In this document: one piece after another, positions 3,019 through 16,688 of the stretch
How the letters are laid out: every line of letters starts with the position of its first letter
Position numbering within the stretch: the first letter of the stretch is position 1
DNA from: a virus
Lineage: Duplodnaviria; Heunggongvirae; Uroviricota; Caudoviricetes
Strand: one strand, 5' to 3'
IMG/VR virus record: IMGVR_UViG_2778261588_000001
DNA length: 25,754 nt
Position numbers and translations under genes: made by a program
The notes under the pieces: generated by a model
Database searches by the model: none
What the model was told of the DNA's origin: nothing
What the model saw: the letters and a program-made list of their open reading frames with translations, nothing else

Positions 3019-3600
3019 TTACCCTATAGGTGCTACTGGCCATTCAATATCCGGTGCAGTTGTTGTATTAACACGGTTCAGCAACACCCGATACTTCTTC
3101 CAGGCTTCCAGCAACGAGATTTCTTCCTCCGTTGCAATTTCCAGATCTGCAGCATCCTGAAGCGGCGCAATATGCTCACTGGCTACCTGCATCAGGTTGT
3201 TTTTTGTTTCTTCCGCCTCCCGGATCCGGAACAGTTTTTCTGCTTCCGTATCCTTCACCCAGGCTGTGCCGTTCCACTTCTGATATTCCCCTTCCGGCGA
3301 TAACCAGGTGACATTTTCCGGTAACGAGCCAAGTTCAGAAATAAATAACGCGTCGCCGGAAGCCACGTCATAGACGGTTTTTCCCCGATGATCTTCAACG
3401 AGATGCCACGATGCCTCATCACTGTTGAAAACAGCCACAAAGCCAGCCGGAATATCTGGCGGTGCAATATCGGTACTGTTTGCTGGCAGACCTGTATGAG
3501 GCGGAATATATGCGTCACCTTCACCAATAAATTCATTAGTTCCGGCCAGCAGATTATAAATTTTTATGGTCCGTGGTTGTTCACTCATTCTGAATGCCAT
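3019..3600 (-). CDS. tfa: Tail fibre assembly protein (Tfa family, 193 aa)
   Basis: N-terminus [51 protein letters not shown] is characteristic of lambdoid Tfa proteins; start overlaps the stop of the upstream stf remnant (TAATG). Confidence 0.85.
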
Positions 3601-3746
3601 TATGCAAGCCTCACAATATAGTTAAATGCGATGTTTTTGACGGTGTTTTCCGCGTTACCAGCAGCGTTAACGGTGATGGTGTGTCCATGTGAACCAATCG
3701 CAACGGAGTGCGTATGAGCACCAATAATCGCGGTTACTCTGTTCAT
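3600..3746 (-). pseudogene. Side tail fibre gene, last 48 codons only
   Basis: Minus-strand translation [48 protein letters not shown] matches the conserved Stf C-terminus. Its first codon overlaps the endolysin stop (ATGA) and its stop overlaps the tfa start. Confidence 0.65.
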
Positions 3747-4060
3747 TGCTGACCCCACAAACAGATTTCACGCTCAATCTCACGACGAGTCATGAGACCT
3801 TTCCATTGCTTACCGCCAGCATATGTCCAGCGACGTAGCTGATCACATGCGCCTTTGATATCGCCCTGGTTTATTTTGCGAAGAAGCGTCGATGTTCTGA
3901 AATTGCCAGCACCCACGTTGTAAACGAATGAGTAAAGAGCGCCGCGCATTGTTTCCGGTATATCGACTTTGATGTACGGGTTAATTTGTCTGGCGACCGT
4001 GGCAAGGTCTTTATTCAGGAGGGCTTTGCATTCTGCTTTGGTATACGTTTTACCGAGCAT
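3743..4060 (-). pseudogene. Endolysin (P22/RrrD-type lysozyme), C-terminal two-thirds only
   Basis: The 105-aa [40 protein letters not shown]... corresponds to roughly residues 61-165 of RrrD-type SAR endolysins as I recall them. Codons for TGKDI precede the ATG in frame, then a stop. The N-terminal SAR segment and catalytic region are absent. Confidence 0.65.
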
Positions 4061-4229
4061 GATGTCTTTTCCTGTACGTCAGCAGGCCAAATACCAGGCT
4101 ACCCAGCACACCTATTGCTGCCCACTGTGAGGGCGTGACTTTATCGAGCAGCTGTAAAAACCAGTAGCCAGCACTGCCTGCGGAGGTGCCGTAGGCAATG
4201 CCTGTTGAAATTTTGTCCATGGATTTCAT
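4050..4229 (-). CDS. Pinholin (phage 21 S-like) with replaced C-terminal tail, 59 aa
   Basis: [26 protein letters not shown]...[17 protein letters not shown] matches the S21/EssD pinholin family as recalled, then diverges into RKRHHAR* read out of frame from lysozyme DNA. Strong SD GGAGGTGA 5 nt upstream of the ATG at 4229. Confidence 0.6.
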
Positions 4230-4330
4230 AGCCTCACCTCCGCACGGAACGGATGGCATAGTTATTATGTGTAGGCTTTCAGACACATCAATCAGAGCCT
4301 TAATTGATATATATGCTGGAGACGATGCAA

Positions 4331-4355
4331 TATAAAAAGCTCGCCATAGCGAGCT
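4331..4355 (-). terminator. Rho-independent terminator downstream of the lipoprotein pair
   Basis: Minus strand: perfect 7-bp stem AGCTCGC / GCGAGCT with a 4-nt loop, followed by TTTTTAT. Confidence 0.5.
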
Positions 4356-4480: not shown

Positions 4481-4876
4481 CTAACCTCGCATGTCAAAGC
4501 CAGATTTCTGAAAATCTCTGTAGACTTCCGGATTGTTGAAGGCCGGAAATTTGGCTTTATGAGCTGCGGACTTTATCGCTTCGCAATAGGCTTTATCACC
4601 GTTACTGGTAGATATTTTTAACGCCGTGCCATCCTGAGAGAATTCCATATGCAACCTGCATTTTTTCCCTTTCCAGTTATGCGGCTCATCAAGTTTGGCA
4701 TTAATTGCAGCTCTGATTCCCCGCGCTTGCGCCCCCCATTCATCCTGATCATCCCAGCGTCCTGAACTGCAACTACCTGTAGCAGTAGTTTTGTGGCAAT
4801 CTGAAGGGTGTAAAGGTGTGCATCCCGCAACAAAACCGACCCAAAAAGTCAACATAACGATTTTCTTTAATCCCAC
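4481..4876 (-). CDS. Lipoprotein with divergent TolA domain III-like C-terminal domain (131 aa)
   Basis: GTG start with SD GAGGAG at 6-nt spacing; signal peptide with lipobox VAGC; C-terminus ...KGKKCRLHMEFSQDGTALKISTSNGDKAYCEAIKSAAHKAKFPAFNNPEVYRDFQKSGFDMRG is paralogous to the adjacent 142-aa lipoprotein and resembles the TolA C-terminus. Confidence 0.7.
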   Translation of the reverse strand: MGLKKIVMLTFWVGFVAGCTPLHPSDCHKTTATGSCSSGRWDDQDEWGAQARGIRAAINAKLDEPHNWKGKKCRLHMEFSQDGTALKISTSNGDKAYCEAIKSAAHKAKFPAFNNPEVYRDFQKSGFDMRG

Positions 4877-5026
4877 TTCTTGCTCCTCAATCCATTAAAA
4901 TCTCAGCAATAGTAGTTGTTACGTCCGCCACTGGCTCAGAGCTGACTATCCGCTAAATTTAGCTCAGTGCCGTAGCTGTGTCAGAACAAACCTAAGCCGA
5001 AACCGTTTATTACAAAACAATAAATA

Positions 5027-5455
5027 TCAGGGTTTAAAATCCAGCACCCCATTTTGAAATACTTTATATACTTCCGGCGAAGGGGGGGCAGGTATATCAG
5101 CATTCTTTATCGCATTCATCGCTTCACGACATAAATCGAGGTCTCCACTTTCTCTTTTAACCTCCAGTAGAAGGCCATTCGGGGCCATATGCATTCTCAG
5201 TGTACACTCTTTTCCTGAATACTTACTCGCATCCCCGAACTGTTTTTCGATGGCGCTCTTGATTTGATGGGCATACAGACGGATATTCTCACTAACATCA
5301 GAAGTACGTTCAGATGAACTCACATACTGTGTCTCTATTGCTTTATCGGAGTAATATGATGTACGGTCATGATAATTTGTCGATACAGCATCAGTGCACC
5401 CGATAATAATCCCACTAATAATCAACGTAAGAATTGATGCGCTACGAAAACCCAT
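5027..5455 (-). CDS. Lipoprotein with TolA domain III-like C-terminal domain (142 aa)
   Basis: ATG with SD GAGGA; signal peptide with lipobox IIGC; C-terminal 85 residues YAHQIKSAIEKQFGDASKYSGKECTLRMHMAPNGLLLEVKRESGDLDLCREAMNAIKNADIPAPPSPEVYKVFQNGVLDFKP resemble the E. coli TolA C-terminus as recalled (...YAGQIKSAIESKFYDASSYAGKTCTLRIKLAPDGMLLDIKPEGGDPALCQAALAAAKLAKIPKPPSQAVYEVFKNAPLDFKP). Confidence 0.75.
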   Translation of the reverse strand: MGFRSASILTLIISGIIIGCTDAVSTNYHDRTSYYSDKAIETQYVSSSERTSDVSENIRLYAHQIKSAIEKQFGDASKYSGKECTLRMHMAPNGLLLEVKRESGDLDLCREAMNAIKNADIPAPPSPEVYKVFQNGVLDFKP

Positions 5456-5572
5456 TTTTCCTCACATATGTCATATAGTAAAGGATTATATATACCGTTG
5501 TTTTGGACGCTCAAACAGCGAATCAGATCAAATAAAACGCACATTTGTTAACATTTACACAAAGTCTGCGTG

Positions 5573-5593
5573 GGATATTCTGAAAGAATATCC
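5573..5593. promoter_or_regulatory. Perfect 21-bp palindrome GGATATTCT-gaa-AGAATATCC about 120 bp upstream of the 142-aa lipoprotein gene; candidate operator
   Basis: Read directly from the sequence: 9-bp perfect inverted arms with a 3-bp spacer in an AT-rich promoter-like region. Confidence 0.4.
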
Positions 5594-5988
5594 ATAATGT
5601 GGAGAGAATCTATTGAAGTGCATGGTGCCGGGTGCCTCCCGGTGAATTCAGTACCAGCACCTGAATCCGCGATTATCCCATATACCTACTCGCTGATTGC
5701 CCCTCCGCACAGGGGGATTCACCATGCCAGTTTCTTTTAACAAACTCCCCGCAAACCAGAGAACAGTCAACCGCCTGAATTGTGAAGTATTTAAAAATTT
5801 CTCCCGCTAACTGATACCCGGCTAACAGTCTGGCGTTTTCTTTTTCAGCAACGGGAAAGCAACAACCACCACACCCGCCACCAGCACACCGTCAGCCAGC
5901 ACTGACATTATCCGGCTGCTGCAATGCCATTCACAAAAACAGTAAGCAATCACTTTTTACCGTAACAGGTGATAATCCAGATATGTAT

Positions 5989-6342
5989 CTACCCCAGATG
6001 AGTAATCCGAAGTTCATCCATACCACAGGTCCTGGCTATTCTGTTGTACTCCTGAACAAGAGCAAATAATTCTGAATTAGCAACCATGAACTCATCGCAA
6101 ACCCTCTGTATAGCATCACTATTCAGAAGAATAACGTCTCTTCCCGAAAGACGATCAGGAGTACAGAACAAAACTGTCAAACGGCTGAAGGCCTTTGCTC
6201 GTGCTGCATTGACTATATCAATACGCTGCCTAAGGATGAAACACCCCGACGCCTCATCAATATTCACTCTACCCACACCATATGAATGATAAATATTTAA
6301 TGCTGAAAAAACCATTAGACCGTATAACAAACACTCAATCAA
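5989..6342 (-). CDS. Hypothetical protein (108-117 aa) between the tRNAs and the lipoprotein pair; start uncertain
   Basis: ORF only. The first codon is TTG at 6342; an ATG at 6315 gives 108 aa; no convincing SD at either; no homology recognised. Confidence 0.4.
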   Translation of the reverse strand: MIECLLYGLMVFSALNIYHSYGVGRVNIDEASGCFILRQRIDIVNAARAKAFSRLTVLFCTPDRLSGRDVILLNSDAIQRVCDEFMVANSELFALVQEYNRIARTCGMDELRITHLG

Positions 6343-6452: not shown

Positions 6453-6529
6453 TGGCGCGCTGTACTGGATTCGAACCAGTAACCGATTGCTTAGAAGGCA
6501 ATTGCTCTGTCCGGCTGAGCTAACAACGC
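6453..6529 (-). tRNA. tRNA-Arg (anticodon UCU), phage argN/argO-like
   Basis: 77-nt cloverleaf on the minus strand: acceptor GCGTTGT/ACAGCGC, T-arm ACTGG-TTCGAAT-CCAGT, anticodon loop CU-UCU-AA, encoded 3' CCA. Confidence 0.85.
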
Positions 6530-6634
6530 TGAATACCGATAATGGACCGCTATCGGGGACCCGCCCCCCCCCCGCACCAACAACCCTGTTATCGTGTCGT
6601 CTGCTCTTCCTGATAAGCTCATGGCGGTTTGTGA

Positions 6635-6710
6635 TGGTGGCCCTTGCTGGATTTGAACCAGCGACCTGGCGATTATGAGTCGCTCGCTCTCACCACTGAG
6701 CTAAAGGGCC
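6635..6710 (-). tRNA. tRNA with CAU anticodon, ileX/ileZ-like (tRNA-Ile2; elongator Met not excluded)
   Basis: 76-nt cloverleaf: acceptor GGCCCTT/AAGGGCC, T-arm GCTGG-TTCAAAT-CCAGC, anticodon loop CU-CAU-AA, discriminator A, encoded CCA; differs at only a few positions from E. coli ileX as recalled. Confidence 0.85.
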
Positions 6711-6853
6711 GGGAGCAGAATAATAACGGTCCGTAATTAATTCCGCAATAAAAAACCCGCTCGGCGGCGGGTTGTAGAAACTCTTCTAACGTCAGGCATA
6801 AAAAGCCCATCGTTATGATGAATTTACCACAGATTTCGGAAAAATCAACCTTG

Positions 6854-7675
6854 TTACCTAGTTACCTTTTTTAACTGCCGCTCAGCCCATCCTTCTTCAA
6901 TATCAAACCGGGTCACCAGCGCATCATAGAATTTCTTAACTGTTTTTTCCCATGACGCGCGTGTTATCTGGTTTGTCACCTCGCATATAGCATTAAATGC
7001 CTCCGTTGATGGTAGTCTTTCATAGCCACGACCACCACAACGCTGGCAGTCTCTGATAACAGGCATACCACGTTTTACCGACTCTTCACGGTGAATGGCG
7101 ACACCACGCCCACGGCAATCCTTACAGGCGGTGGAAACCTCACCCTTTCCGCCACACTCCGGACAGGCAACTTTTACCACCTCCCTGACTTTTTTCCATT
7201 CTTCCCAGTAAGACGGATACACACCTTTCGTACACTTTGCCCATACCGGCGGCTTACCATCCGGATACTGGACCTTGTTTGTAAAAACTACGCTTTCAAT
7301 AAATTTTTCCCCATAGCAACAAGGGCACTGCTTTTTACTCGCTGCGCTGCGGGCATAATCCTCAAAAGCGTACGAAGCCATAATGCGCATCACTACCGGT
7401 TTTATTTCTGCCGGAAGTTTTCTCAACGCCGCCACACGATCGCACCGACTGAGTGCATAATCTGCCAGTAATTCTGTTGCCCGCGCCCTGTCATTCATAC
7501 TGATGCCCATTTTCCCCAGGAACGCAGAAAACCCCATCTCAGCCCGATTCTGTGTCATGCCCTGCGCGGCCATCACATCAGTGATACTCAGCGCATCTTT
7601 TGACGTTGAGGCCGATGCATCGGTCAGGCAAGGGGATTTTGGGGAGTAGTATTTCGGTAAATCTTCCAGTTTCAT
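6854..7675 (-). CDS. quuQ: Late-gene antiterminator Q, QuuQ-like, with DnaJ-type zinc-finger repeats (273 aa)
   Basis: Three CxxCxGxG motifs (CPECGGKGE, CKDCRGRGV, CQRCGGRGY); overall similarity to Qin QuuQ as recalled; position immediately upstream of the phage tRNAs. Confidence 0.75.
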   Translation of the reverse strand: MKLEDLPKYYSPKSPCLTDASASTSKDALSITDVMAAQGMTQNRAEMGFSAFLGKMGISMNDRARATELLADYALSRCDRVAALRKLPAEIKPVVMRIMASYAFEDYARSAASKKQCPCCYGEKFIESVVFTNKVQYPDGKPPVWAKCTKGVYPSYWEEWKKVREVVKVACPECGGKGEVSTACKDCRGRGVAIHREESVKRGMPVIRDCQRCGGRGYERLPSTEAFNAICEVTNQITRASWEKTVKKFYDALVTRFDIEEGWAERQLKKVTR

Positions 7676-9555: not shown

Positions 9556-9711
9556 TTACTCCTCAGGTTCGTAAACTGTGAAGACAGCGACCTCCGTCTG
9601 GCCGGTTCGGATTCGTACCTCGCAGAGGTCTTTCCTCGTTACCAGTGCCGTCACTATGACGGTTAAACAGATGACGATCAGGGCGATTAACATCGCCTTT
9701 TGCTGCTTCAT
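9556..9711 (-). CDS. hokD: Hok-family type I toxin (51 aa), HokD/RelF-like
   Basis: MKQQKAMLIALIVICLTVIVTALVTRKDLCEVRIRTGQTEVAVFTVYEPEE is near-identical to E. coli HokD as recalled. An in-frame 19-codon upstream extension exists but the internal ATG gives the canonical length. Confidence 0.85.
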   Translation of the reverse strand: MKQQKAMLIALIVICLTVIVTALVTRKDLCEVRIRTGQTEVAVFTVYEPEE

Positions 9712-10431
9712 AGCCTGCTTCTCCTTGCCTTTCGGCACGTAAGAGGCTAACCTAGATTTGCCGTTCATAGATTGAGCCTCAGATTAATGTTAAGCGTCTT
9801 GCAGGACGCGTAATGTTAACTGGGGCTTTTCTCTATCTGCCTTTGGTGTTCATGCCTGAGGCAGATAGCCTCAAGCACCCGCAGCAATTCTACTTAACTC
9901 CCGTCACCTCGCCAATATAAAATCAATCAGAAAGGCGATCCATAAGAACAACAGCAAGACAATAAATTGCCATTACAGCCGCAATAGCTAGCGCACATTT
10001 GAGAACCAGCACGACAACCTCCTGTATTGGACGTACACCAGTTCTGATAAATATGAGGCTGTCTCATCATTGATTCAATATAACTATTGGGTATAGTTTC
10101 TGTGATTTTGTTCTGTAGAAATGGAACACAACAACCAGTCACCACCAGCACTTCTTTAAATACGCCAAGTCCGACGCAAGCTAACCTTCTAGTCCGCTTT
10201 GAGCGAGGAGCGGACCAAACCCGGCCAACTGACTCTTAAAGGGGCCGCAGGAATTTTTCGTCTGAACTTTCGAAGCTCCTCTCCCTGAAGACAGAAAACT
10301 TCTGTGTGCTGTGGGAATATTGAATCTTTGCATTAGATATAAATAATTTTATCCCGCCTGAAGTTTACATTATTTTATTTATCTGTTTTTCTAAATCAGA
10401 CTGCACTCCTTACTTAAATCAGGAGCCAGTC

Positions 10432-11631
10432 ATGCCATTTGTTATTTATGTGTTTACTATCAGTGCCTTTGCGCTCGGACTCGCGGAATTTGTCCCCATT
10501 GGGCTGACAGACGTTATGGCTCAGGGGTTGTGTGTGGGTGTGGAGCAGACCGGGGCAGCGGTTACAACCTATGCACTGGGGGCAACGTTCGCGGCACCCG
10601 TACTGTCTGCGCTGACAGCAAGCTGGAGCCGGAAAAATGTAATGCTTACAACTGCCGTTGTGTTTACTGCCGGTAGTCTGGCGGCCGCGTTTGCAGCCAC
10701 ATTACCTCAGCTCCTGTTAGCGCGGTTCATTGCTGGTCTGGGACACGGCCTGTTTCTGGCTGCGGCATCCAGTACCGCAGCTCGTCTTGCTGGACCGGGT
10801 AAAGCAGGCAGAGCGGTGGCTGTGGTATTTGGTGGCTTTACTCTGGCGATGGCAATCGGCGTACCGCTGAGTACATGGTTGGGGGGGGTGGTCTCATGGC
10901 GTCCAGTTCTCGGCGCTATTGCCGCTTTTGGCGCGTTCGGATTCCTTGGACTGTTGTTCGGTATGAAAGATCCCGTACGCAGCGTGCCCGGTGAACATAG
11001 TGACTCAGCAATGCAGAATATCGGCATGCTGTTTAACCGTAAGTTGCTGGCCGGCGCGCTGGTTACGGTGCTGGCGTATGCAGGCTCGTTTACGGCTTAC
11101 ACCTTTATCGCACCTATTCTGACGCAGGTGACAGGGGTTACCGGAGCAACGGTGAGTCTGTTTATGCTGGTTTACGGTATTACAGCTGCGGTAGGTAATA
11201 TTCTTGGTGGGAAACTTACCGACAGCATGGGGGTTAATCGTGCCAATATACTCATCATTAGCGGCATTGTTGTTGTCGTGCTTGGTATGTGGCTGCTGTC
11301 ATCCTCACCGGTGAGCATGGGCATTCTGGTTGCGCTGCTGGGTATGGTGACATTTGCCGCAGTGCCGGCACTGCAGGCCCGTCTGATTGGTGTCGCTGAG
11401 CAACATGCTCCTCATGCGCATGGTGTTGCTGCCGGCCTGAATATTGCGGGCTTCAACTCAGGTATAGCGCTGGGATCAGTACTGGGCAGCATTACTATAA
11501 GCCACGCCGGTATCGTGTATACCGGTATCAGCGGTGCGATTGTTTCTCTGCTCGGCCTGCTGTTGCTGCTTGCACAAATCCGTCGCAGCCACAGTCGTAA
11601 ATTTCAACAGGTTAAAATCGTAGGCCAGTAA
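10432..11631 (+). CDS. MFS transporter (399 aa, 12-TM type), cargo
   Basis: Long hydrophobic ORF with Gly/Ala-rich helices; SD AGGAG upstream; visibly higher GC than flanking phage DNA. Confidence 0.85.
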   Translation: MPFVIYVFTISAFALGLAEFVPIGLTDVMAQGLCVGVEQTGAAVTTYALGATFAAPVLSALTASWSRKNVMLTTAVVFTAGSLAAAFAATLPQLLLARFIAGLGHGLFLAAASSTAARLAGPGKAGRAVAVVFGGFTLAMAIGVPLSTWLGGVVSWRPVLGAIAAFGAFGFLGLLFGMKDPVRSVPGEHSDSAMQNIGMLFNRKLLAGALVTVLAYAGSFTAYTFIAPILTQVTGVTGATVSLFMLVYGITAAVGNILGGKLTDSMGVNRANILIISGIVVVVLGMWLLSSSPVSMGILVALLGMVTFAAVPALQARLIGVAEQHAPHAHGVAAGLNIAGFNSGIALGSVLGSITISHAGIVYTGISGAIVSLLGLLLLLAQIRRSHSRKFQQVKIVGQ

Positions 11632-11642
11632 AGGGAGGTTAT

Positions 11643-12335
11643 ATGCTTACCCGTGAAAATATGCTTAATGGCACATTTGTCAGGGTGCATGAAGCGCTGC
11701 TCCCGGCGAATATGCTCTGGGACGCTGAAAAAATACGCGCATCAATGAACTCTACTCTGGAGGAGCGCCCGACGGGTGCTCCTTTCTGGATATTTGCCTA
11801 CGGGTCATTGATGTGGAATCCCGTGCTGGCAATTGAAGAAATGCAACGGGCCCGTCTGAAAGGATGGCAGCGCAGTTTCTGCATTCGTTTGATATCCGGA
11901 CGAGCGACTCCTGATGTCCCCGGCAGGATGTTATCGCTCGACGAAGGTGGAATTACCGAAGGTATTGCGTTCAGACTGCCGGAATCGACTCTTATTAATG
12001 AGCTGGAAATTGTCTGGACGCGCGAGATGATAACCGGTCTTTACCGTCCGGTCTGGGCAGACGTTTCGCTAGGAAACGGTGAGGAAATTCAGGCGCTGGC
12101 TTTCGTATCAGACAGACTGCATCCGCATTATGAACAGGACAATCTTACAGCGACCGTAGCGTTGAGCATCGCATCTGCCCGTGGAGACATTGGCACGAAT
12201 GCAGATTATGTATGGAAACTGCAGGCCACTCTGGGTGCGTTGGGAATACGGGATGATTACGTGAGTGAACTGGCCCTTGCTCTGCATGAGGCTCCCTGTA
12301 ACGATAAACTTCATCAGCGAGGCGCTTCACTATGA
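11643..12335 (+). CDS. ChaC-family gamma-glutamylcyclotransferase-like protein (230 aa)
   Basis: Motif FWIFAYGSLMWNP and downstream GRMLSLDEGG...LWTREMITG pattern typical of ChaC; SD AAGGGAGG upstream. Confidence 0.8.
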   Translation: MLTRENMLNGTFVRVHEALLPANMLWDAEKIRASMNSTLEERPTGAPFWIFAYGSLMWNPVLAIEEMQRARLKGWQRSFCIRLISGRATPDVPGRMLSLDEGGITEGIAFRLPESTLINELEIVWTREMITGLYRPVWADVSLGNGEEIQALAFVSDRLHPHYEQDNLTATVALSIASARGDIGTNADYVWKLQATLGALGIRDDYVSELALALHEAPCNDKLHQRGASL

Positions 12336-13213
12336 GCCATCTGAGCCATCTGCGAACGTTTCTTGAGGCCTATCGCTCTGGCTCCTTTTCAAAGGCGGCA
12401 GAACTACTGGGCATCACTCAGCCCGCGGCGTCACAGCATATCCAGTCTCTTGAGACTCTGGTTGGTAAGCGTCTGTTTATCAGGCAGGCCAGAGGCGTGA
12501 CGGCAACCGAAGCTGCGGATGAGCTTGCCCGCTCAGTTTCACCCTTCATTGATGGTCTGGAAGAAAAGCTGTCCTCTTTCCGGTCAGGCTCTGTACACGG
12601 GGGAACAATTAATCTGGCAGGACCGCCAGATTTTATTCATTCCCGGCTTGGGACAGTAATGGCTCCACTAATGAAGGAGGGGTATCGCCTACGCTTTCAT
12701 ACCGGCAATAAGCAACGTATTTATTCCCTTTTGCATGACGGGAGCGCCGATCTCGCTGTTACCGCATCTATGCCTGATGACCGTCTGTACGGCTATGCAC
12801 ATCTACTGACTGAACGCATGCTCCTTGTTCATGCTCCCGCCATGTCAGAGATCATCGGATCAGAACCTGGTGCTGAAACGCTTGCCTCATTACCGCTGAT
12901 TGCTTATGACGAAGAGTTGCCACTGATTAGAGCGCTCTGGGCCTCCATGTTTCAGAGAGCCCCTGAGATGCAGGCTACATTCACCATTCCGGATTTACGT
13001 ATTATCCGCGACTTGGTCTGTGACGGCCACGGGTGGACAGTGCTGCCGGATTATCACTGTGACAATGACCTGAAAAGTGGTCGCCTGATTTCAGTGACAC
13101 CTGCAGACCTCGCTCCGACTAATCATCTTTATCTGGTCTGGAACAAAAGGACGGCTAATAACAGCCGAACCGCCTATGTTCGGGATTACATTCTTAAAAC
13201 GTTTCCGCGTTGA
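12332..13213 (+). CDS. LysR-family transcriptional regulator (293 aa)
   Basis: N-terminal HTH LRTFLEAYRSGSFSKAAELLGITQPAASQHIQSLE; start overlaps the ChaC-like stop. Confidence 0.85.
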   Translation: MSHLSHLRTFLEAYRSGSFSKAAELLGITQPAASQHIQSLETLVGKRLFIRQARGVTATEAADELARSVSPFIDGLEEKLSSFRSGSVHGGTINLAGPPDFIHSRLGTVMAPLMKEGYRLRFHTGNKQRIYSLLHDGSADLAVTASMPDDRLYGYAHLLTERMLLVHAPAMSEIIGSEPGAETLASLPLIAYDEELPLIRALWASMFQRAPEMQATFTIPDLRIIRDLVCDGHGWTVLPDYHCDNDLKSGRLISVTPADLAPTNHLYLVWNKRTANNSRTAYVRDYILKTFPR

Positions 13214-13257
13214 TGTTTGAAACGGATGATTGGCGATGCGTATCATAAGTTACGTAT

Positions 13258-13281
13258 GTCCGCTTCTGGCACAAAGCAGAC
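13258..13281. repeat. Hairpin repeat copy A: GTCCGCTT-ctggcaca-AAGCAGAC
   Basis: Read directly; shares a 16-nt core (15/16 identical) with copy B at 16931..16954; lies between the convergent LysR and membrane-protein genes. Confidence 0.45.
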
Positions 13282-13343
13282 GCCCACTCTCACGCGAATG
13301 CTTTGCCCTTGACTTGCCAACAACCGTATCGCTTGCTCCGCAA

Positions 13344-14636
13344 CTATGGTTTTTTATTAGAACCTTCGCCACTAAATAAATTATAATAAATTGATTTTAT
13401 TAGATATCTGTCAGAATCTATATGGTCAGCACGAGTAGCATGCTCTAATGTTTCAAATGCTAGGGTTTGTGCGGCTTCAGCAAAAATTCCAGGCCAACCC
13501 TTACTCAGCATCGACAGTCCTTTAAGTACCCTTATCTGAATTTCCCTCATACTGGCACCATCGCGCGCAACAGGTGAGAAAAAGTCTTCAAGTAGATCGT
13601 TATTCTGAAGTGGTGCAACATGTACAGAAGGATATTTCACTTCTATTTCATCAGATTTATTCTGCGCGTAAGCGGAAAGTATACGTACACCTCTGCCAAT
13701 GACATCAATGGCGGTTCCAGGATCGTTCACTGCGGGGGAAAGGGCTCGGCAGGCTATTTCGGCCATGACGCTAAGACAAAATCGGGGGTCCTGAGCAAAT
13801 GAACGTACATCCGAGACAATAATCGTCTCAAGTAAATCGGTGCTGATTGATGACTCCTGGCCCTGACTCAGGTACAAAACTGGCGTGGACGGATGTATGA
13901 AACTGCCCGGCTGCGCCACGAGGTATACATGACGGGGATCATTGGTCAGCAGCTTGCTGAGTTTCACCATATCAACATATTCAACATAGCCAATCTTTTT
14001 CGGATAAACTGCAACCGTTCCTTTCGGCTGTTCATTGTTCTCAAGCCAAGGATATCCGCCGAGACAGGGATTTCTTGCTCTCGCAATAAATGTTTCGATG
14101 GCCGCCTGTTCTACTTTTGCCGTTGTCTCACCAACCCTCCCCAGAGAGGTCAAATGCTGTATCCAGCGAAGCAATGTGATGAGGATTAAGGCAATGACAA
14201 CCAGTGTTACAATGAATAAAATGACTCTCCCCCTTTCTCCATAAGCTCCCATATTGAGGGCAATAATCCCTACCAGACTGAAGAGAAAAGAACCGATGAA
14301 GGTGGCCAGTACATTTTGTGTGGTGACGTCTTCAACAACTAAACGAGTAGCTCTGGGAGTCACATTAGTAGTGGCTGAACCGTAGGCTGTGACCATGATG
14401 CTCAGCGAAAATGTGGTCACTGCCAGCATACTCGATGCCAGTATGTTCAGAATGTTATCGACTGCTTCCGCACCAACCTTCACGGAAACCGACTCAGGTA
14501 TCATTGATTTAAAAAGAATTGATAAAAGGGCCGTTATTATTGCGACAATTGCGAATAACGTTGCCCTGAACCATAGTTTTTTAAATGTCTGCTTCAGCAT
14601 CCATTTCCAGCGTGAAATCATTCTGCATTCCCTCAT
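13344..14636 (-). CDS. Predicted membrane protein (430 aa), DUF2254-like
   Basis: N-terminal transmembrane segments followed by a soluble C-terminal domain; family assignment from memory and uncertain. Confidence 0.65.
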   Translation of the reverse strand: MRECRMISRWKWMLKQTFKKLWFRATLFAIVAIITALLSILFKSMIPESVSVKVGAEAVDNILNILASSMLAVTTFSLSIMVTAYGSATTNVTPRATRLVVEDVTTQNVLATFIGSFLFSLVGIIALNMGAYGERGRVILFIVTLVVIALILITLLRWIQHLTSLGRVGETTAKVEQAAIETFIARARNPCLGGYPWLENNEQPKGTVAVYPKKIGYVEYVDMVKLSKLLTNDPRHVYLVAQPGSFIHPSTPVLYLSQGQESSISTDLLETIIVSDVRSFAQDPRFCLSVMAEIACRALSPAVNDPGTAIDVIGRGVRILSAYAQNKSDEIEVKYPSVHVAPLQNNDLLEDFFSPVARDGASMREIQIRVLKGLSMLSKGWPGIFAEAAQTLAFETLEHATRADHIDSDRYLIKSIYYNLFSGEGSNKKP

Positions 14637-14684
14637 ATTGCAGCCGGGATAAATAAATGCCGCCTCTGTGGCGGCATGTTGCTG

Positions 14685-16688
14685 TTAACGAACCAGATGC
14701 AGGAAGTGCAGGTGTTTTTCGTACTGGTCCAGTATGTCATTAATCAGCTGTTCCTGATTCCAGCCCATTACATCATAATTTTGGCCGCCCTCTTTGAGAT
14801 AGACTTCAGCGCGATAATATCGATGTTGTTCACTCTGCTGCTCATCATTATCCAGCGCAGCGAGCGCGAAGGTCGGTGAGTTATACCCGCGAAGCCTCAC
14901 TTCATATATATAATTCAGCTCGTTGCCCAAATCGACTTCAAGGCGAATACGATCCTCGGCGGCGTCACTGATGTGGCTTATCGTTCCCTGCTTGTTAAGT
15001 TCCTCCTGAACCAGCGTCATGGCGGGTTGGATAATGTCGTCCATAAAACGTTTCACAAGAGAGCGCTTCGGCAAATACGCGATATTGCGTAACCTTCTCT
15101 GCCAGGGAATTGGGTTACGTGCAGCCGTAGGAGCAATAGTCGCCATGCTAAGGCTTTCACGCTTGGTCAAATCCCGACGCAGGGCTTTTAACAGTCCGTA
15201 TATGGATATTAATAAGATAACTGAGAAGGGCAATGCACTCGCTATCGTTACGGTTTGCAACGCACTCAGCCCCCCTGCGATCAGCAGGGCAATAGCAACA
15301 ACGCCCATGAGCGATGCCCAGAAAATTCGCTGCCAGACGGGCGTGTTTGCCACCCCACCTGATGCCAGAGTATCCACAACCATTGCCCCCGAATCAGCAG
15401 ACGTTACAAAGAAGACGATGACCATCGCCATTGCAATGAATGACAGCACGGAAGAGAACGGGAAATGCTCCAGGAAATTAAACAGGGCAAGCGCAACATC
15501 CTGCTGAACGGTATTGGCGAGGTCAGTGGCGCCCTGGTTCATGATGAGATAGATGGCGCTGTTTCCAAACACCGTCATCCACATGAGCGTAAAGCCGGCG
15601 GGAACAAACAACACGCCAGTCACGAACTCACGAATTGTCCTGCCGCGGGAAACGCGTGCAATGAACATACCTACAAACGGCGACCATGAAAGCCACCATC
15701 CCCAGTATAATAATGTCCAGCCCCCCAGCCAGTTGCTCGACTTGGGTTCATACGCGTAAAGGTTGAACGTTTTACTCACCAGTTCCGACAGATAACCACC
15801 CGTATTTTCCACAAATGACTTCAGCAGAAGCACAGTGGGACCCAGGCACAAGACCAGCGCCAGGAGCAACACCGCCAGGCCCAGATTAAGCTCAGACAGG
15901 ATGCGTATTCCCTTGTCCAGGCCGGACACCACCGAAATCGTCGCTAACCCCGTGATGACCACGATCAAAATGACCTGTACCGTTTCATTGATGGGCACGC
16001 CGAAAAGATGGTTCAAACCGGCATTCACCTGCAATACACCGTAACCCAGTGATGTTGCAACGCCAAAGACAGTGCCTATCACGGCGAAGATATCAACCGC
16101 GTGGCCTATAGGCCCGTAAATGCGATCGCCGATAATGGGATAGAGCGCAGAACGCAGCGTTAAAGGCAGACCGTGACGGTAACTGAAAAAGGCCAGAATC
16201 AGCGCCACGATGGCATAAATTGCCCATGCGTGCAGACCCCAGTGGAAGAACGTCAGGCGCATGGCTTCCTTCGCTGCCGCAACGGTCTCTGGAGTGCCGA
16301 CAGGTGGCGAAAGATAATGCATCACAGGTTCGGCAACGCCAAAGAACATCAGGCCGATCCCCATCCCTGCCGAAAAAAGCATCGCGAACCAGGAGTGGTA
16401 GCTGAAATCAGGCTGCGCATGGTCTGGGCCCAGCTTTATATCACCGTAACGTGAGAGTCCAAGGAACGTGACGCTCAGTAAAATCAGGGCCACAGCAAGT
16501 ATGTAGAACCAGCTGGCATTCGTGAAGATTTGTTGCTGAAGTAGTTTAAAATTTTTGTCGGCGACATCCGGGAATACGGCGGCAAAGGCGACAAGAAGGA
16601 AAATTAGCAAAGCAGATGTAAAGAATACCGCTTTGTTAATCTGGCTTGTAGACTTCTTTGGGGTTGTATCATTTTCACTCATAATCAT
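14685..16688 (-). CDS. BCCT-family transporter, BetT-like (667 aa)
   Basis: Length and N-terminal pattern (...GDIKLGPDHAQPDFSYHSWFAMLFSAGMGIGLMFFGVAEPVMHY) parallel E. coli BetT as recalled; long C-terminal cytoplasmic tail. Confidence 0.85.
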   Translation of the reverse strand: MIMSENDTTPKKSTSQINKAVFFTSALLIFLLVAFAAVFPDVADKNFKLLQQQIFTNASWFYILAVALILLSVTFLGLSRYGDIKLGPDHAQPDFSYHSWFAMLFSAGMGIGLMFFGVAEPVMHYLSPPVGTPETVAAAKEAMRLTFFHWGLHAWAIYAIVALILAFFSYRHGLPLTLRSALYPIIGDRIYGPIGHAVDIFAVIGTVFGVATSLGYGVLQVNAGLNHLFGVPINETVQVILIVVITGLATISVVSGLDKGIRILSELNLGLAVLLLALVLCLGPTVLLLKSFVENTGGYLSELVSKTFNLYAYEPKSSNWLGGWTLLYWGWWLSWSPFVGMFIARVSRGRTIREFVTGVLFVPAGFTLMWMTVFGNSAIYLIMNQGATDLANTVQQDVALALFNFLEHFPFSSVLSFIAMAMVIVFFVTSADSGAMVVDTLASGGVANTPVWQRIFWASLMGVVAIALLIAGGLSALQTVTIASALPFSVILLISIYGLLKALRRDLTKRESLSMATIAPTAARNPIPWQRRLRNIAYLPKRSLVKRFMDDIIQPAMTLVQEELNKQGTISHISDAAEDRIRLEVDLGNELNYIYEVRLRGYNSPTFALAALDNDEQQSEQHRYYRAEVYLKEGGQNYDVMGWNQEQLINDILDQYEKHLHFLHLVR

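Follow-up and report, generated by a model that had tools for sequence, protein, structure and literature searches.

The virus record IMGVR_UViG_2778261588_000001 (Caudoviricetes) is a stretch of 25,754 nucleotides, here called the window, that represents a defective lambdoid prophage of E. coli at the Qin site (ydfJ/tfaQ). Between the genes for its late antiterminator Q and its holin lie two adjacent genes for proteins of 142 and 131 amino acids (aa), which we call the 142-type and the 131-type. The two products share one architecture: a lipoprotein signal peptide, then a tether, then domain III of TolA (TolAIII), which serves Tol–Pal as its docking module in the periplasm, as the only folded part (Table 1).

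Two lipoproteins built on TolA domain III

The N-terminus of each protein matched a PROSITE-style lipoprotein pattern. The 142-type begins MGFRSASILTLIISGIIIG-C20, with the lipobox IIGC, and the 131-type begins MGLKKIVMLTFWVGFVAG-C19, with the lipobox VAGC; for the latter, it is the GTG codon at 4876, with its GAGGAG Shine–Dalgarno sequence, that yields a canonical lipoprotein signal peptide. Because the residue at position +2 is threonine in both, and not the aspartate that acts as an inner-membrane retention signal, sorting to the outer membrane is predicted for both, and we treat them as predicted lipidated proteins of that membrane. Database records of the 131-type use other start codons: chromosomal records begin at Met8, so that the KK n-region is lost, and plasmid records begin 12 codons too early, giving a protein of 143 aa.

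The C-terminal part of both proteins is TolAIII, far beyond chance. Pfam PF06519 (TolA C-terminal; cutoff 25 bits) matched the 142-type with 82.0 bits (E = 3.6e-23) and the 131-type with 54.6 bits (E = 1.3e-14), and phmmer searches against TolAIII chains in the PDB gave E-values of 2e-27 and 5e-9, respectively. The last 87 residues of the 142-type aligned without gaps to residues 335–421 of K-12 TolA, with 51 of the 87 identical (59%) and the terminal LDFKP kept, and the best full-length match to this domain was E. coli-type TolA; for the 131-type, 27 of 79 residues were identical to K-12 TolA (34%). In AlphaFold2 (AF2) models the predicted local distance difference test (pLDDT) score was 74–92 over residues 52–142 of the 142-type and 85–96 over residues 41–131 of the 131-type, with the signal peptide and tether disordered in both. 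Foldseek superposed the 142-type model on E. coli TolAIII 2x9a_B with a template modelling (TM) score of 0.93, and the 131-type model on E. coli TolAIII 3qdp with a TM score of 0.92, each at a root-mean-square deviation (rmsd) of 1.1 Å. In these models both proteins have the TolAIII fold of three strands and three helices, and the disulfide cysteines, equivalent to C363 and C388 of TolA, are present in both. An earlier, sequence-only reading of this DNA had taken both products for lipoproteins with a signal peptide, a lipobox and a C-terminus resembling TolAIII, the longer copy matching TolA at roughly half of its positions and the shorter one more divergent; alignment and structure prediction bear this out for both copies.

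What the two proteins lack is the rest of TolA. The N-terminal transmembrane helix that couples TolA to TolQR and its long helical domain II are missing from both, and so neither can couple to TolQR or transmit force. Both genes lie in the prophage late region, outside any tolQ-tolR-tolA-tolB-pal operon, and NCBIfam matches were limited to the last 80–100 or so positions of the TolA models. Against NF007065, the equivalog model for full-length TolA, the proteins scored 106 and 54, both below the cutoff of 213; against TIGR02794 the 142-type scored 75.1, above the cutoff of 59.45 through its C-terminus only, and the 131-type scored 47.2, below it. Automated annotation by PGAP names the 142-type ‘cell envelope integrity protein TolA’, owing to this C-terminal match to TIGR02794, and the 131-type ‘TolA C-terminal domain-containing protein’. 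The TolA_C domain is thus already recognised by databases, but the name ‘TolA’ for the 142-aa protein is a misleading over-annotation, since the protein has neither the transmembrane helix nor domain II of TolA and is not encoded in a tol operon.

Between lipobox and domain, the 131-type carries a cysteine-containing segment (residues 19–48; 4733–4822, minus strand) of the form C-x-PLHPS-x-C-HKTTATG-x-C-x-SGRWDDQDEWG. It is nearly unchanged across Escherichia, Citrobacter, Enterobacter, Serratia and Klebsiella, with a ratio of nonsynonymous to synonymous substitution rates (dN/dS) of 0.01–0.1, and appears, from this conservation, to be more than a passive tether. AF2 placed a small hairpin at C28–C36, with low confidence. 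A likeness of GRWDDQDEWG to the TolB box of colicin E9 (GWSSENNPWG) was considered and rejected, as the spacing is different and W47 is part of the domain: in the gapless alignment with TolA it falls on the NNYAGQ segment, where the TolAIII helix begins (helix 46–61 in the AF2 model).

We then compared the edges at which TolAIII binds its ligands. The TolB N-terminus, the N1 domain of filamentous phage g3p (g3p-N1) and colicin N bind strand β3 of TolAIII, while colicin A binds β2 on the opposite side (PMC7391070); the β3 substitutions D418P and K420P abolish binding of colicin N, g3p-N1 and TolB (PMC4339652). At the positions equivalent to D418 and K420, the 142-type has D and K, and the 131-type D and R. 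Colicin A contacts L375–P380 of TolA together with K368, K379 and K396 (PMC3365938), and this edge is mostly kept in the 142-type (LLEVKR, with H, K and K). Judged by these residues, the 142-type would closely mimic E. coli TolAIII on each of its two known binding edges. The 131-type, which keeps the β3 pattern only, would bind a narrower set of ligands or a different one, and it is this difference in interface residues that suggests different ranges for the two types.

The slot between Q and the holin

All features of the slot lie on one strand, in the order Q, tR'-like terminator, two tRNA genes, an open reading frame (ORF) with DUF3927, a match to the STnc100 small RNA family, the 142-type gene, the 131-type gene, a terminator-like hairpin and the holin (Table 1). 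For comparison, the order in an Stx2a phage is Q, ileZ, argN, argO, stx2AB and a 645-aa ORF, and the tRNA(CAT) and tRNA-Arg(TCT) genes of the window match ileZ and argN of Stx phages in position. At another locus, the same tRNAs are immediately followed by a 65%-identical variant of the 142-type, and then come a 648-aa ORF with nanS-p-type domains (DUF1737, SASA), DUF1378, DUF826 and the holin. Both gene orders agree with the earlier placing of the two genes in the slot where Stx phages carry stx.

Table 1 Features of the two lipoprotein genes and of the surrounding slot, in window coordinates
Feature	Coordinates	Strand	Evidence	Remarks
Late antiterminator Q	7675..6854	minus	Pfam PF03589, E 3e-54	Upstream end of slot
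tR'-like terminator	6773..6754	minus		Downstream of Q
Two tRNA genes	6453..6710	minus	ARAGORN, Rfam	Anticodons CAT and TCT (Arg)
Match to STnc100 small RNA family	5756..5566	minus	Rfam RF02076, 114 bits, E 4e-25	
Promoter-like TTGAGC-18-TATAAT	5514..5485	minus	10/12 consensus	~30 nt upstream of the 142-type start codon
142-type lipoprotein gene (142 aa)	5455..5027	minus	ORF, ATG start, GAGG Shine–Dalgarno sequence	
142-type signal peptide	5455..5399	minus		Residues 1–19
142-type cysteine predicted to be lipidated	5398..5396	minus		Cys20
142-type disordered tether				Residues 21–51
142-type TolA domain III	5302..5030	minus		Residues 52–142
131-type lipoprotein gene (131 aa)	4876..4481	minus	ORF, GTG start, GAGGAG Shine–Dalgarno sequence, spacing 6 nt	
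131-type signal peptide				Residues 1–18
131-type cysteine predicted to be lipidated	4822..4820	minus		Cys19
131-type Cys-containing segment				C19..C28..C36..GRWDDQDEWG
131-type TolA domain III	4756..4484	minus		Residues 41–131
Terminator-like hairpin and T-run	4355..4338	minus	7-bp stem, 5 GC pairs, then TTTTTAT	Between the 131-type gene and the holin
P21-type holin	4286..4050	minus	Pfam	Downstream end of slot
Inactivated lysis cassette	3743..4286	minus	Pfam; alignment with intact essD-rrrD of strain AR_452	

The promoter-like sequence upstream of the 142-type was the best of 11 such sites seen in the region, against 6.8 ± 2.4 expected from shuffled sequence, and is suggestive only. A ciprofloxacin RNA-seq paper proved unusable as evidence of expression: EDL933_2012, tied to TolA, is a tail fibre protein in that paper's own table. 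STnc100 as a part of the cassette was not supported, being missing beside the diverged 142-type variant (loci L089/L091). Between the tRNAs and the DUF3927 ORF, a 117-aa ORF with a TTG start (5989–6342, minus strand) had no Pfam or PADLOC match, is unannotated in RefSeq records of the same locus and is probably not a gene.

Downstream of the cassette the lysis genes are dead. A 226-bp deletion joins the P21-type holin to an N-terminally truncated lysozyme, and the spanin gene breaks off after 22 nt, where tail-fibre remnants and tfaQ take over (3560–4300, minus strand). The cassette itself is intact directly upstream of these destroyed lysis genes. Elsewhere in the window, Rfam found a hok/sok locus at 9706–9880 (minus strand; sok, 112 bits), beside which lies a block of ORFs of about 6 kb (10432–16688) that corresponds, by position only, to the genes for an MFS transporter, a gamma-glutamylcyclotransferase, a LysR protein, a DUF2254 protein and a BCCT transporter in the related AR_452 prophage.

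Distribution, separate histories and pairing with TonB domains

The 142-type and 131-type share 29% identity and fall into separate subfamilies. Each is found alone elsewhere: the 142-type in other prophages, as diverged alleles without a 131-type partner, and the 131-type on plasmids and chromosomes. On these grounds a recent tandem duplication was rejected, and the pair is best read from the sequences as an assembly of two independent cassettes. The two genes had been called tandem paralogues in the sequence-only reading; their adjacency stands, but not an origin by local duplication. The accompanying idea that two diverged copies serve different targets is reasonable from the interface differences described above, though it would apply to two cassettes brought together and not to a duplication that diverged.

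As a pair, the genes are common and tightly linked. Of 5426 complete E. coli genomes, 773 carried the exact pair at 99% identity or more, as did phage mEp460_ev081; the same cassette recurred in all 77 IMG/VR contigs that could hold both genes, always with the two adjacent and in 76 of them at a fixed spacing. The cassette was 98–100% identical across loci where the flanking holin was only 87–91% identical.

The ranges of the two types differ. The 142-type is essentially restricted to prophages of Escherichia and Shigella, while a word-index search found the 131-type at 78–89% identity in Citrobacter, Enterobacter, Serratia, Klebsiella and Raoultella. It was present on 607 plasmids, among them pO157, where it lies near toxB, and IncK2/Z conjugative plasmids, where it directly follows the relaxase gene; within E. 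coli it is confined to mobile elements. About 90 bp of conserved upstream DNA accompanies the 131-type in all contexts. On the Serratia marcescens chromosome (L102/L103, 7001–9736) it lies between nrdDG and a GmrSD_N/HEPN gene pair, a neighbourhood like that of a defence island. A scan of GTDB species with family patterns returned 6 loci only and says little on distribution.

Both types are under purifying selection. Against plasmid and chromosomal homologues, dN/dS for the 131-type was 0.08–0.11 over the whole gene and 0.06–0.08 over the domain, and its N-terminal segment (C19..C28..C36..GRWDDQDEWG) was invariant in most aligned homologues. For the 142-type, dN/dS was 0.26 in the domain and 0.5 in the tether.

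When 1.84 billion representatives were searched exhaustively with a profile, the family extended to 607 clusters at E ≤ 1e-3. Among the top 150 matches, 50 of the 76 short proteins (100–175 aa) had a lipobox, and none had aspartate at +2.

TolAIII and the C-terminal domain of TonB (TonB_C) are the two periplasmic hubs exploited by bacteriocins and some phages. On about 380 plasmids, mostly ColE1-type plasmids of Klebsiella of 10–12 kb, a gene for a TolAIII lipoprotein overlaps a gene for a Sec-exported TonB_C protein, and on the one plasmid examined this pair stands beside a bacteriocin–immunity–lysis operon. In that 10-kb ColRNAI plasmid of Klebsiella pneumoniae (L004, 4908–5641), the TolAIII lipoprotein, with the lipobox LLLTAC and the ending PLDFRP, overlaps the TonB_C gene, and the neighbours are a colicin-like tRNase bacteriocin, its immunity gene and a lysis gene. 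The two domains may also be joined in one chain, as in P0051, a metagenomic lipoprotein of 235 aa in which TonB_C (47–114) is fused to TolA_C (142–233). In a Kosakonia-type protein of 323 aa (P0048), a signal peptide precedes a pair of TolA-like domains split by an Ala/Lys-rich helix. Among the comparative evidence, this pairing and fusion with TonB_C would speak most strongly for a decoy role of the TolAIII lipoproteins, to which we now turn.

A possible decoy role and its alternatives

We tentatively propose, as a possibility to be taken seriously though short of probable, that both proteins are outer-membrane-tethered, force-incompetent mimics of TolAIII that capture the ligands of TolA and so confer tolerance to Tol-dependent colicins and filamentous phages. 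A short tether would hold them to the outer membrane on its inner side, where colicin translocation domains, g3p N1 and the TolB N-terminus first emerge, and they would bind these ligands by β-strand augmentation just as TolA does, but to no productive end. The cell that carries the prophage or plasmid would become tolerant to TolA-dependent colicins and to phages of the Ff/If1 type, with some loosening of Tol–Pal at high expression as a likely side effect. The presence of the ligand-binding domain of TolA only, behind an export signal, is consistent with a decoy. Exported TolAIII, as made in the laboratory, is also said to confer colicin tolerance. The envelope is perturbed when TolAIII is exported to the periplasm behind a signal sequence (Wan & Baneyx 1998 and Levengood-Freyermuth 1993, as used in PMC6195910), and in the converse arrangement periplasmic g3p-N1 sequesters TolA and blocks uptake of colicin A and phage (PMC10424213). 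The affinities of TolAIII are about 1–12 μM for the parasite ligands versus about 40 μM for TolB (PMC4339652), so that a decoy could trap invaders over the physiological partner.

Several observations weigh against this proposal. The 131-type has lost the contact residues of the colicin A edge (ALKIST, with E, S and H). In the Enterobacter cloacae complex it is a fixed single chromosomal gene between gpx and a gene of the RidA family; it is therefore not a phage-specific weapon, and a fixed locus of this housekeeping type looks like that of an ordinary envelope protein and not of a defence gene. The call of a promoter for the cassette itself is weak, so that its expression in the lysogen is putative, and a place in the late operon adjoining the holin would suit a lysis role as well. 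A TolAIII decoy would also rival TolA for TolB, which could be costly. PADLOC had no match for either protein or for two upstream ORFs of the slot, and a literature search found no study of TolAIII lipoproteins encoded by phages, plasmids or chromosomes; one survey of Klebsiella bacteriocins mentions ‘TolA’ on a plasmid and nothing further.

The late-operon position leads to an alternative that we hold to be unlikely, namely that the proteins loosen the envelope. By binding the TolB N-terminus in competition with TolA they would cut the mobilisation of Pal, and the resulting mild tol-type leakiness or vesiculation would aid the release of progeny, cargo or bacteriocin. The two genes do lie on one strand in a late operon that depends on Q, with the holin next downstream, in the slot that elsewhere holds Stx, which lysis sets free. 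In the laboratory, TolAIII in the periplasm serves to make cells leak periplasmic proteins (PMC6195910), TolA β3 mutants that lose TolB binding are leaky (PMC4339652), and modulated TolB interactions have been suggested in a review as a way in which vesicle production could be regulated (PMC7391070). Yet the cassette has stayed whole although the holin and lysozyme of this prophage are destroyed, and non-lytic plasmids and chromosomes carry genes for the same proteins. Phages of this type already encode spanins, the affinity of TolB for TolA is weak, and the pairing and fusion with TonB_C would be left unexplained. A role in ordinary envelope physiology, conceived mainly for the 131-type, strikes us as quite unlikely: here an outer-membrane-anchored TolAIII paralogue would hold, for example, TolB or CpoB, and its pick-up by mobile elements would be secondary and bring no role against colicins or phages. 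The fixed locus is shared by many Enterobacter genomes, and high identity across five genera, very strong purifying selection that includes the cysteine-containing segment, and the upstream region that moves with the gene everywhere all fit such a role. The confinement of the 131-type to mobile elements in E. coli does not, and that prophages, conjugative plasmids and a virulence plasmid have repeatedly acquired it suggests a transferable benefit; its neighbours in Serratia are defence-type genes, and the evidence here points to no partner beyond the known ligands of TolAIII.

That the genes are functionless debris, tolA fragments caught by recombination and carried passively in a mosaic late region, is highly improbable. 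Lambdoid late regions are mosaic, this prophage is defective and a few database variants are frameshifted (P0010, P0031), but tolA would not have supplied the canonical lipoprotein signal peptides or the Shine–Dalgarno sequences, the fold and the disulfide cysteines are retained, intact copies number in the hundreds, and the cassette is better conserved than the holin beside it. With dN/dS at 0.08–0.37, the selection data bring the debris reading close to refuted.

The decoy proposal may be set beside known systems. With TolAIII itself (PDB 1TOL, 2X9A, 3QDP/3QDR and 1S62) the two proteins share family, fold, disulfide pair, the D and K (or R) of β3 and a C-terminus of the LDFKP type; where TolA has a transmembrane helix, domain II and a place in the tolQRA operon, they have a lipoprotein signal peptide in place of the anchor. 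Dominant-negative TolAIII or TonB C-terminal constructs exported in the laboratory are alike in principle, a free docking domain competing with the energised protein, but are artificial, soluble and overexpressed, whereas the present proteins are natural, lipid-anchored by prediction, diverged, equipped with conserved tethers of their own and kept by selection on mobile elements and chromosomes. Cor (phi80 and N15), Llp (T5), TraT (F) and exclusion by filamentous g3p likewise involve small envelope proteins of mobile elements, and a block on competitors such as theirs is what we propose here. The logic would be the reverse, however, as the host receptor is the target of Cor, Llp and g3p and a TolAIII mimic would bind the ligand of the invader. 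In PHROGs both proteins fell into phrog_5772 (function unknown) and not into the Cor or Llp families, other matches being weak (E of 0.003 or worse) and likewise of unknown function. With Stx and other morons between Q and the holin they share the slot after Q and the tRNAs, and the product is unrelated; with a candidate promoter upstream and a candidate terminator downstream, moron-type independent transcription of the cassette is putative. By analogy, we would place the proteins with mobile-element envelope proteins of the exclusion or tolerance type, which would act through mimicry of a host hub; they are widespread.

More speculatively, and with less confidence than for the two proteins themselves, they may belong to a general class of ‘import-hub decoys’: tethered or periplasmic docking domains from the C-termini of TolA and TonB, single, paired or fused, carried by enterobacterial mobile elements and some chromosomes. 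Such proteins would intercept the translocation epitopes of group A and B bacteriocins and of Tol- or Ton-dependent phages before these reach the energised machines, giving broad tolerance independent of immunity proteins, and the 142/131 cassette would be a version with two specificities.

If the envelope-loosening alternative were true, the cassette would be a means by which phages or plasmids control vesiculation and release. If instead the decoy reading is correct, transferable tolerance to colicin-like bacteriocins and filamentous phages, achieved by mimicry of a host hub and not by a change of receptor, would be present in about one in seven complete E. coli genomes, on pO157 and IncK/Z plasmids, and on hundreds of bacteriocin plasmids of Klebsiella. 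This could explain variable colicin sensitivity among isolates and would bear on bacteriocin and phage therapeutics against enterohaemorrhagic E. coli and Klebsiella, and as natural competitors of the TolA–TolB interaction the proteins would be useful probes for Tol–Pal biology.

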